Shown piece by piece: positions 2,939 through 47,406 of a DNA stretch of 64,000 bases. The stretch is from Escherichia coli. Lineage in GTDB: Bacteria > Pseudomonadota > Gammaproteobacteria > Enterobacterales > Enterobacteriaceae. The notes beneath the pieces are model-generated. The model did not search any database. It was not told the DNA's origin and saw nothing but the letters and a program-made list of their open reading frames with translations. The DNA lies in assembly GCF_016026235.1 (NCBI RefSeq), contig NZ_CP065613.1. One strand, written 5' to 3'. A program made the position numbers and the translations under genes. Each line of letters opens with the position of its first letter. Position 1 is the stretch's first letter.

Positions 2939-3012
2939 GCGGGCGTAGTTCAATGGTAGAACGAGAGCTTCCCAAGCTCTATACGAGGGTTCGATTCCCT
3001 TCGCCCGCTCCA
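2939..3012 (+). tRNA. glyU: tRNA-Gly (anticodon CCC)
   Basis: 74-nt sequence GCGGGCGTAGTTCAATGGTAGAACGAGAGCTTCCCAAGCTCTATACGAGGGTTCGATTCCCTTCGCCCGCTCCA; cloverleaf with anticodon loop CTTCCCAAG, T-loop GGTTCGATTCC, 3' CCA. Confidence 0.95.
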
Positions 3013-11029: not shown

Positions 11030-12061
11030 TTAGTCGCTGGTTGCATGATGACTTGCCTCCAGCGACGGAGTTGACACTGAATGACGACGTACCAGCGTCG
11101 GACTAAAGACATTAGTGATTTCCGGGAGAGGGCGATTATCCGCCAGCGCCAAAGCCAGTTCGGCAGCCTGGGTCGCCATCGTCACGATTGGGTAACGCAC
11201 GGTGGTCAGGCGCGGACGCACATAGCGTGACACCAGCACATCATCAAAGCCAATTAACGAAATCTCACCCGGTACATCAATACCATTATCATTGAGAACG
11301 CCCATCGCACCCGCCGCCATTGAATCGTTATAACAGGCTACCGCAGTGAAATTTCTTCCTCGTCCCAAAAGCTCGGTCATTGCCTGTTCGCCGCCGCTTT
11401 CGTCTGGTTCGCCAAATGTCACCAGCCGGTCATTGGCCGCAATACCACTTTCAGCAAGGGCATCGTAATACCCTTGCAGACGATCTTCGGCGTCAGAAAT
11501 AGAGTGGTTAGAGCACAGATAACCAATGCGGGTATGACCTTGCTGAATTAAATGACGCGTTGCCAGCCAGGCACCGTAACGATCGTCAAGAGCAATACAA
11601 CGGTTTTCAAAGCCAGGCAGGATACGGTTGATCAGCACCATACCGGGCATTTGTTTCATTAATGAGGCTAAATCGGCATCCGGGATCATTTTGGCATGGA
11701 CGACCAACGCAGCACAGCGATGGCGGATCAGTTGCTCAATAGCCTGACGCTCTTTTTGTTCGTTGTGGTAACCGTTGCCAATCAATAAGAAATTACCGGT
11801 GTGATAAGCCACCTGTTCGACCGCTTTCACCATTGCACCGAAAAACGGATCGGAAACATCACCAACGATCAGACCGACCGTTTCAGTGGTCTGCTGCGCC
11901 AGCGCACGGGCGTTGGCGTTCGGGTGATAGCTAAGAGACTCCATTGCACTATGCACAGCCAGCCGGGAAGCTTCGCTGGCTTTGGGTGAATTATTAATGA
12001 CGCGGGAAACGGTGGCGACTGAAACGCCTGCCAGTCGGGCTACATCCTTTATGGTCGCCAT
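11030..12061 (-). CDS. galR: Galactose operon repressor (LacI/GalR family)
   Basis: 343-aa ORF with N-terminal HTH MATIKDVARLAGVSVATVSRVINN. Confidence 0.95.
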   Translation of the reverse strand: MATIKDVARLAGVSVATVSRVINNSPKASEASRLAVHSAMESLSYHPNANARALAQQTTETVGLIVGDVSDPFFGAMVKAVEQVAYHTGNFLLIGNGYHNEQKERQAIEQLIRHRCAALVVHAKMIPDADLASLMKQMPGMVLINRILPGFENRCIALDDRYGAWLATRHLIQQGHTRIGYLCSNHSISDAEDRLQGYYDALAESGIAANDRLVTFGEPDESGGEQAMTELLGRGRNFTAVACYNDSMAAGAMGVLNDNGIDVPGEISLIGFDDVLVSRYVRPRLTTVRYPIVTMATQAAELALALADNRPLPEITNVFSPTLVRRHSVSTPSLEASHHATSD

Positions 12062-12274
12062 GAAAATACCTTAGTGGGTAAACGCTTACATTCTTTCAGT
12101 GTTACGGAAAACGCCCGTTGGTTCAAGGGGTGGCGTGTTTTCATCGTGGGAATGTGAGCCAAACGCAAATAAGTAAGACAAAAAAAGAGATTGCAAACCT
12201 TTGGTTACACTTTGCGAAACGCTGTTGCGATTGACCGCTGGTGGCGTTTGGCTTCAGGTTGCTAAAGTGGTGAT

Positions 12275-12357
12275 CCCAGAGGTATTGATAGGTGAAGTCA
12301 ACTTCGGGTTGAGCACATGAATTACACCAGCCTGCGCAGATGCGCAGGTTTTTTTTT
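12275..12357 (+). ncRNA. omrB: OmrB small RNA (RygB)
   Basis: Begins CCCAGAGGTATTGATAGGTGA and ends in the hairpin CCTGCGCAGATGCGCAGG plus a 9-T run; lies between galR and aas; matches the OmrB sequence as I recall it. Confidence 0.85.
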
Positions 12358-12471
12358 GCCGGTCATCAATCTGTAACAGTAACCGACAATTTACACACCT
12401 CGTTGCATTTCCCTTCATTCCTTTGCGTTTTCTCGCTGGCGAAGAGTCGTCGTGCAGACCACAATCAAGAT

Positions 12472-12559
12472 CCCAGAGGTATTGATTGGTGAGATTATTC
12501 GGTACGCTCTTCGTACCCTGTCTCTTGCACCAACCTGCGCGGATGCGCAGGTTTTTTTT
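12472..12559 (+). ncRNA. omrA: OmrA small RNA (RygA)
   Basis: Begins CCCAGAGGTATTGATTGGTGAGATT and ends in CCTGCGCGGATGCGCAGG plus an 8-T run; shares 5' and 3' ends with OmrB, about 200 bp downstream. Confidence 0.85.
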
Positions 12560-12625
12560 CGCACCTAATTTACTGTCGCTCGCGTTCTTTATCTCGTGTA
12601 ATCTCCCTCCATTCGCTTTTACTGA

Positions 12626-15992
<3,367 letters not shown>

Positions 15993-42417: not shown

Positions 42418-42494
<77 letters not shown>

Positions 42495-42528
42495 TCACCG
42501 TACTGCTTTTACTTCATCAAATTTTGAT

Positions 42529-42605
<77 letters not shown>

Positions 42606-42648
42606 TCACCGTACTGCTTTACTTCATCAAATTTTAATTGGTTGCGGG

Positions 42649-42725
<77 letters not shown>

Positions 42726-44108: not shown

Positions 44109-44207
44109 TGCCGGATGCGGCGTGAACGCCTTATCCAGCCTACAAATCATGCAAATCCAAAATATTGCAGGAGTTATGTAGGCCTGATAAGCGTAGCGCA
44201 TCAGGCA
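44109..44207. repeat. BIME-like pair of inverted REP elements
   Basis: GCCGGATGCGGCGTGAACGCCTTATCCAGCCTACA and TGTAGGCCTGATAAGCGTAGCGCATCAGGCA in opposite orientation; the segment is flanked by an 18-bp direct repeat (44057-44074 and 44219-44236). Confidence 0.6.
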
Positions 44208-47200: not shown

Positions 47201-47406
47201 AAAAAAAAGCACCGCAATTAGGCGGTGCTACATTAATCACTATGGACAGACAGGGTAAATGTACAGGAAGTGAAAAAAGGTAGCTTTGCTACCATGGTCT
47301 GAATCGCAGACCAATTGCAAACACAACAACACAACATCACAACCGTAAGCCAAAAGTTCACCAGAACACGCATTCCGATAAAACTTTTCGTTCCGGCTCA
47401 GGAAGT
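47201..47406 (-). ncRNA. gcvB: GcvB small RNA
   Basis: Minus-strand sequence begins ACTTCCTGAGCCGGAACGAAAAG..., contains the G/U-rich stretch GTTGTGATGTTGTGTTGTTGTGTTTG and ends in the hairpin AGCACCGCCTAATTGCGGTGCT plus a T-run; divergent from gcvA. Confidence 0.85.

Follow-up and report, generated by a model that had tools for sequence, protein, structure and literature searches.

Two small RNA genes between galR and aas

The DNA analysed here, hereafter the window, is a stretch of 64,000 nucleotides from an Escherichia coli chromosome. Between galR (11030..12061, minus strand) and aas (12647..14806, plus strand) it carries two small RNA genes, omrB at 12275..12356 (82 nt according to the K-12 annotation) and omrA at 12472..12559 (88 nt). 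Both are located on the plus strand, i.e. they are divergent from galR and run in the same direction as aas, which starts 88 nt past the end of OmrA.

The earlier note had proposed an OmrB/OmrA pair between galR and aas, in this order, and had named an Rfam scan as a check. We scanned the whole 64-kb window with Rfam 15. The OmrA-B family (RF00079, gathering score 40 bits) matches at 12275-12356 with 86.1 bits and at 12472-12559 with 96.6 bits, in both cases over the full length of the covariance model (positions 1-87 of 87). The first element is 100% identical over 82 nt to omrB of E. coli K-12 MG1655 (b4445, RygB), and the second is 100% identical over 88 nt to omrA (b4444, RygA). According to the K-12 annotation, the ncRNA gene omrB adjoins galR and the ncRNA gene omrA adjoins aas; order, strand, orientation, flanks and spacing are the same in the window. 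The proposal and the order of the two genes are confirmed by the family matches, the identity to K-12 and the shared neighbours.

Over the 586 nt of the galR-aas intergenic region the sole difference from K-12 is an extra T in the run after the OmrB terminator, with 9 T in the window (12349-12357) and 8 in MG1655. The 9-T variant is shared, at 100% identity, by many other E. coli strains. The promoter bases that characterise the K-12 genes are also the same, namely -12C in omrA and -12T, T-75 and A-68 in omrB. Judged by its sequence, the interval 12275-12559 is OmrB plus OmrA, the already known reference pair of K-12 itself, base for base. The RNAs show no departure from the K-12 reference, and every defining feature that can be read from a sequence is present.

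Among 5426 complete E. coli genomes, 5423 contain a match to a 701-nt query over the region, flanked by galR and aas; the identity is at least 99% in 5335. The other 3 genomes gave no match. In this collection, the matching places are chromosomal in 5426 of 5428 cases, with a median of one place per genome. The other two places are plasmid records, and in 18 matching records less than 80% of the query is covered.

OmrA and OmrB are textbook enterobacterial small RNAs that link the EnvZ-OmpR envelope stress response to outer-membrane proteins, iron uptake, motility and biofilm. The value of the observation lies in correct annotation: a PGAP-annotated E. coli strain with 100% identity lists no feature in the omrB-omrA interval, and spotting the pair prevents spurious ORF calls where PGAP genomes list nothing.

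Repeat structure, terminators and folding

A repeat search finds two blocks that are shared by the elements. The 5' repeat is 24 nt long (12272-12295 and 12469-12492, 96% identity, 197 nt from start to start) and the 3' repeat is 38 nt long (12322-12359 and 12525-12562, 89% identity, 203 nt from start to start). The window has exactly two instances of the 15-mer CCCAGAGGTATTGAT, at 12275 and at 12472, both on the plus strand. By chance, about 0.08 would be expected even if two mismatches are tolerated, and none of 100 shuffles yielded two matches. The conserved 5' end CCCAGAGGUAUUGAU is present without change at the transcript start of both copies.

Aligned with each other, omrB and omrA differ at only one of the first 21 positions (position 16 is A in omrB and T in omrA), the middles diverge and the last ~30 nt are nearly identical. 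This agrees with the previous description of two units of ~85 nt with near-identical 5' ends and differing middles, the actual lengths being 82 and 88 nt. The first 21 nt, 12275..12295 in OmrB and 12472..12492 in OmrA (both plus strand), are assigned as the target-pairing region from conservation, from the predicted folds and pairing, and from published compensatory mutations (PMC2588501).

A terminator scan shows that each element finishes with a 9-bp, G+C-rich hairpin and, after it, a T-run. The OmrB intrinsic terminator (12329..12357, plus strand) has an AGAT loop and 9 T, and the OmrA intrinsic terminator (12532..12559, plus strand) has a GGAT loop and 8 T. The CCTGCGC/GCGCAGG stem is common to both, so the claim of the earlier note that the terminator hairpins are identical holds for the stems; it does not hold for the loops, which are one base apart, for the base preceding the stem (G in omrB, A in omrA) or for the length of the T-run.

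Single-sequence minimum free energy folds of the two RNAs of the window are more stable than those of shuffled sequences (z = -2.9 and -2.7). In the predicted fold of OmrA nucleotides 1-15 are unpaired. In that of OmrB nucleotides 7-15 are weakly paired, and the consensus fold of 33 sequences leaves nucleotides 1-16 free. Consensus folding was performed on 33 OmrB-position and 28 OmrA-position sequences. Both consensus folds leave nucleotides 1-16 free. The central hairpin, which is variable, is closed by a GGUG/CACC helix, and the terminator comes last. The helix is invariant in both sets, and within the central hairpin four pairs (OmrB-position) and three pairs (OmrA-position) are kept through two-sided changes. 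The copies in the window share this family architecture, i.e. a free 5' end, the GGUG...CACC helix, the central hairpin and a terminator with a U-tail.

Conservation across Enterobacterales

Homologues were gathered from contigs with one genome per species using the terminator alone (CCTGCGCNGATGCGCAGGTTTTT), so that the test of the 5' end is not circular. The search retrieved 120 other enterobacterial loci from more than 20 genera, including Citrobacter, Enterobacter, Kluyvera, Cedecea, Mangrovibacter, Pluralibacter, Pantoea, Erwinia and Mixta. These loci contain 152 terminator matches, one of which is incomplete because its locus ends there. The other 151 are complete copies and all of them (151/151) carry the exact 15-nt 5' end, CCCAGAGGTATTGAT, located 69-89 nt upstream of the terminator match. 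The lack of a conserved 5' seed, which had been named as the observation that would speak against the pair, is thus not what the terminator-retrieved homologues show.

Two copies are present in 61 of the 120 loci, with a spacing of 191-273 nt in 50 of these 61. Both galR and aas flank the copies in 66 loci, one of the two genes in 38 and neither in 16; many of the loci are short or truncated. Beside the copies selected by the pattern, we found variant terminators (CCCACGC...GCGTGGG, CCTGCG-TTTATA-CGCAGG and CCTGCGCCAGTGGCGCAGG). All of them keep the hairpin, two pairs by compensatory swaps.

In Enterobacter and relatives (L007, L014, L022, L030, L050, L076, L104) the terminator stem at the OmrB position is shortened, CCTGCG-TTTATA-CGCAGG, and the neighbouring OmrA copy in the same loci has the canonical hairpin. 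In Mangrovibacter (L015, L055, L069) both tandem copies are OmrB-like, with an A at position 16 and nearly the same central regions. Their likeness suggests that gene conversion or an independent duplication may have taken the place of the usual divergence between OmrA and OmrB.

A different arrangement is found in the Erwiniaceae, i.e. in the Pantoea and Erwinia loci (L020, L034, L043, L057, L072, L078, L082, L095, L100, L112, L119). In this family the Omr copies have the 15-nt 5' end unchanged, together with the GGUG...CACC helix and a terminator made of a hairpin and a U-tail; they lie in the same galR-aas interval and match RF00079 at 67-82 bits (L034, L043, L072, L100 and others). They are on the same strand, but 2.03-2.14 kb apart instead of the ~200 nt seen in E. 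coli (in L034 the copies are at 746-821 and 2792-2883). Of the two, the first copy is the shorter one (73-84 nt against 91-110 nt for the second), and the second lies ~215 nt upstream of aas, with a CCCACGC/GCGTGGG terminator stem that contains two compensatory pair changes. Between the two copies sits an FtsI/PBP3-like ORF of ~575 aa. It is probably a PBP3 paralogue, since its score to NF011685 (685.7 bits) is under the cutoff of 737.

Open reading frames in the interval

ORFs of 38-78 codons are present on both strands of the interval, and it could be argued that these encode one or more small proteins, e.g. 12486-12722 or the 54-codon frame 12254-12418 (minus strand), and that the repeats are a duplicated coding sequence. 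We consider this reading very improbable. Pfam gives no significant match for any of the intergenic ORFs (E=0.043 and 13.8 bits at best, the cutoff being 27), and no CDS is annotated in the interval either in K-12 or in the PGAP-annotated strain. The longest frame, 12486-12722, has 78 codons and a TTG start; it reads through the OmrA terminator and overlaps aas in a different frame. Across 44 other species it is open for 0-94 codons only and its peptide is changed by frameshift; in one of these copies it stays open as far as aas over the 600 nt that were scanned. Conservation is highest at the 5' and 3' ends of the elements and tracks base-pairing instead of codons. The protein-coding reading of the intergenic ORFs is rejected on the missing Pfam matches and the unconserved frame, and the view of 12486-12722 as an artefact, already put forward in the earlier note, is borne out by the same results together with the missing annotation. 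The small protein SamT, described in a 2026 paper, was also considered as a candidate for the interval and rejected, as SamT corresponds to ydgU, which lies elsewhere, at the asr locus.

Promoters and upstream boxes

The transcription start (+1) was set at 12275 for omrB and at 12472 for omrA, and the -10 elements were placed from the known +1 and from conservation, using an alignment of 49 distinct promoter sequences for each copy. The omrB promoter has an extended -10 element, TGcTAAAGT (12260..12268, plus strand), with the TG at -15/-14, a T at -12 and the hexamer TAAAGT at 12263-12268. The TG and the TA..T are conserved among the 49 sequences. The -10 element of omrA is CCACAAT (12459..12465, plus strand), with C at both -13 and -12 and the hexamer CACAAT at 12460-12465, and it is also conserved. 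According to published work, the C at -12 is the sigma-S determinant and the T at -12 a sigma-70 feature, and through this difference in the -10 element omrA depends on sigma-S and omrB on sigma-70 (PMC12692685). When 12000-12700 was scanned for generic sigma-70 promoters, no site came up; this result does not count against the promoters, because both are activator-dependent and have a poor -35.

Upstream of omrB we mark a putative activator region at 12196..12241 (plus strand) with two conserved blocks, AAnCTTTnnTTACACTTTGC at -79..-60 and GCTGTTGCGATTG at -54..-42. Here GTTACA at -71 and GTTGCG at -51 are 20 bp apart and are followed by CTGG at -37. The upstream region of omrA (12372..12439, plus strand) contains TGTAACA (-100..-94, 12372-12378), then GTTGCA at -70 and TTTGCG at -50, again 20 bp apart, and CTGG at -36; among the 49 sequences a block ATTCCnTTGCnTTTT is conserved around -55..-41. 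The two regions share the skeleton KTTRCR-N14-KTTGCG-N8-CTGG, which in the 64-kb window occurs only at these two promoters. The pattern was defined post hoc, after both sequences had been viewed, and its chance expectation of zero is therefore descriptive only.

Several published observations bear on these motifs. In omrB the double change T-75C plus A-68G lowers the activation by OmpR from 81-fold to 3.3-fold (PMC13425233), and the mutated bases correspond in the window to the T at 12200 and to the A of GTTACA at 12207. In vitro, phosphorylated OmpR activates both promoters on fragments from -114 to +50 of the identical K-12 sequence; the report describes activation and gives no footprint coordinates (PMC5175337). 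OmpR was also found at both promoters by ChIP (PMC3945435). The upstream motifs are consistent with OmpR boxes, although they are not proof of them, because the OmpR consensus is weak (PMC3945435). The search for OmpR-binding direct repeats, suggested in the earlier note, hence yields candidate boxes, i.e. a skeleton common to both copies at a place that agrees with the mutational data (PMC13425233).

OmpR does not explain all of the highly conserved promoter boxes. It is conceivable, if somewhat doubtful, that they bind further regulators and so provide a separate input for each paralogue. A 2026 study of the omrB boxes could not show direct binding of RstA (PMC13425233). If true, the reading would refine a known system and would not amount to a new kind of element.

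Target pairing and proposed mechanism

To predict target pairing, nucleotides 1-24 of the window RNAs were paired in silico with K-12 target mRNAs using RNAduplex, with shuffled seeds as control. For ompT, nucleotides 1-9 pair with +12..+20 within a full duplex at -5..+21 of -19.9 kcal/mol, and 1% of the shuffled seeds are as good. The predicted ompR site is in the 5' UTR at -37..-10, with -19.4 kcal/mol and 1.2% of the shuffled seeds as good. For cirA the site is at -36..-9, with -15.9 kcal/mol, and is not significant on its own, as 16% of the shuffled seeds do as well. All three sites coincide with sites validated by compensatory mutations (PMC2588501). The pairing with cirA rests on the published mutational evidence because its duplex energy is indistinguishable from that of shuffled seeds.

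In the established model from the literature, the 5' ends of the RNAs pair in an Hfq-dependent manner with translation-initiation regions, which leads to decay by RNase E and to negative feedback on ompR-envZ (PMC2588501, PMC12692685). The dependence on Hfq was published for identical RNAs (PMC2588501), and its sequence correlate, a terminator hairpin with a U-tail of at least 8, is present in both copies of the window.

We therefore interpret the interval as two independently transcribed paralogous small RNAs that depend on Hfq and act in trans, OmrB at 12275-12356 and OmrA at 12472-12559, and we put the probability of this reading at about 98%; none of the data speak against it. Identity, anatomy, the pattern of conservation, promoter motifs and in-silico pairing come from this analysis; dependence on OmpR and sigma-S, dependence on Hfq and pairing in vivo are taken from the literature and not from this strain. 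In the proposed mechanism each transcript would be ended by its intrinsic terminator, whose hairpin and U-tail would also be the site bound by Hfq. The 5' end (nucleotide 1 to about 21), which is invariant and for the most part single-stranded, would pair with the translation-initiation regions of mRNAs, the expected targets including ompT, cirA, fecA, fepA, ompR-envZ, csgD, flhDC and flgM. Pairing would block translation and trigger decay by RNase E. As a result, the outer membrane would be remodelled and OmpR, the activator of the two RNAs, would be subject to negative feedback.

The position of OmrA, on the aas strand and with its end only 88 nt before the aas start codon, would also fit a cis-acting leader or attenuator of aas, with the first element as a decayed copy and neither acting as an independent RNA in trans; in the Erwiniaceae an Omr copy likewise lies ~215 nt upstream of aas. 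Against this, each copy has a conserved -10 element and upstream boxes of its own and ends in a strong terminator with 8-9 U. They are annotated as separate ncRNA genes and have been published as individual transcription units that act in trans on distant genes (PMC13425233, PMC2588501), and the predicted duplexes pair the 5' end with unlinked targets. We regard a leader function as having only a very slight chance of being correct. The least probable reading is a generic intergenic repeat of the REP/BIME type, or a pair of duplicated terminators, with no specific function. It would account for the G+C-rich hairpins, which are almost the same in the two elements and lie 203 nt apart between genes. 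Against it, the motif does not recur in the rest of the window, and a genome typically has one copy of the locus, which is not the pattern of dispersed REP elements. Conservation does not stop at the hairpin; it continues for another 60-70 nt on the upstream side, up to an invariant 5' end whose distance is fixed. Finally, a family-specific covariance model matches over its full length.

The trans-acting OmrB/OmrA pair resembles in its logic other duplicated Hfq-dependent small RNAs with a shared seed, namely Qrr1-5 in Vibrio and PrrF1/2 in Pseudomonas. In these paralogues the pairing region and the terminator are conserved, and the rest of the RNA and the promoters have diverged, so that different inputs reach a common regulon. 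The likeness is an analogy of logic only, as there is no sequence relationship to the Omr RNAs and the regulators and targets are others.

Other features of the window

A full-length GcvB small RNA is found at 47201-47406 on the minus strand (RF00022, 199 bits). A tRNA-Gly(CCC) gene is located at 2939-3012 on the plus strand, ~8 kb beyond galR, which we take to be much nearer to the galR side than glyU is in the K-12 map. The position of GcvB, like that of the tRNA-Gly, suggests insertions or deletions relative to K-12. Three tandem tRNA-Met(CAT) genes are present at 42418-42715 on the minus strand. About 1.4 kb from this cluster, at 44143-44185 on the plus strand, there is a short Rfam match to the small RNA ES036 (CssrF) with 46.5 bits, the gathering score being 37.6.
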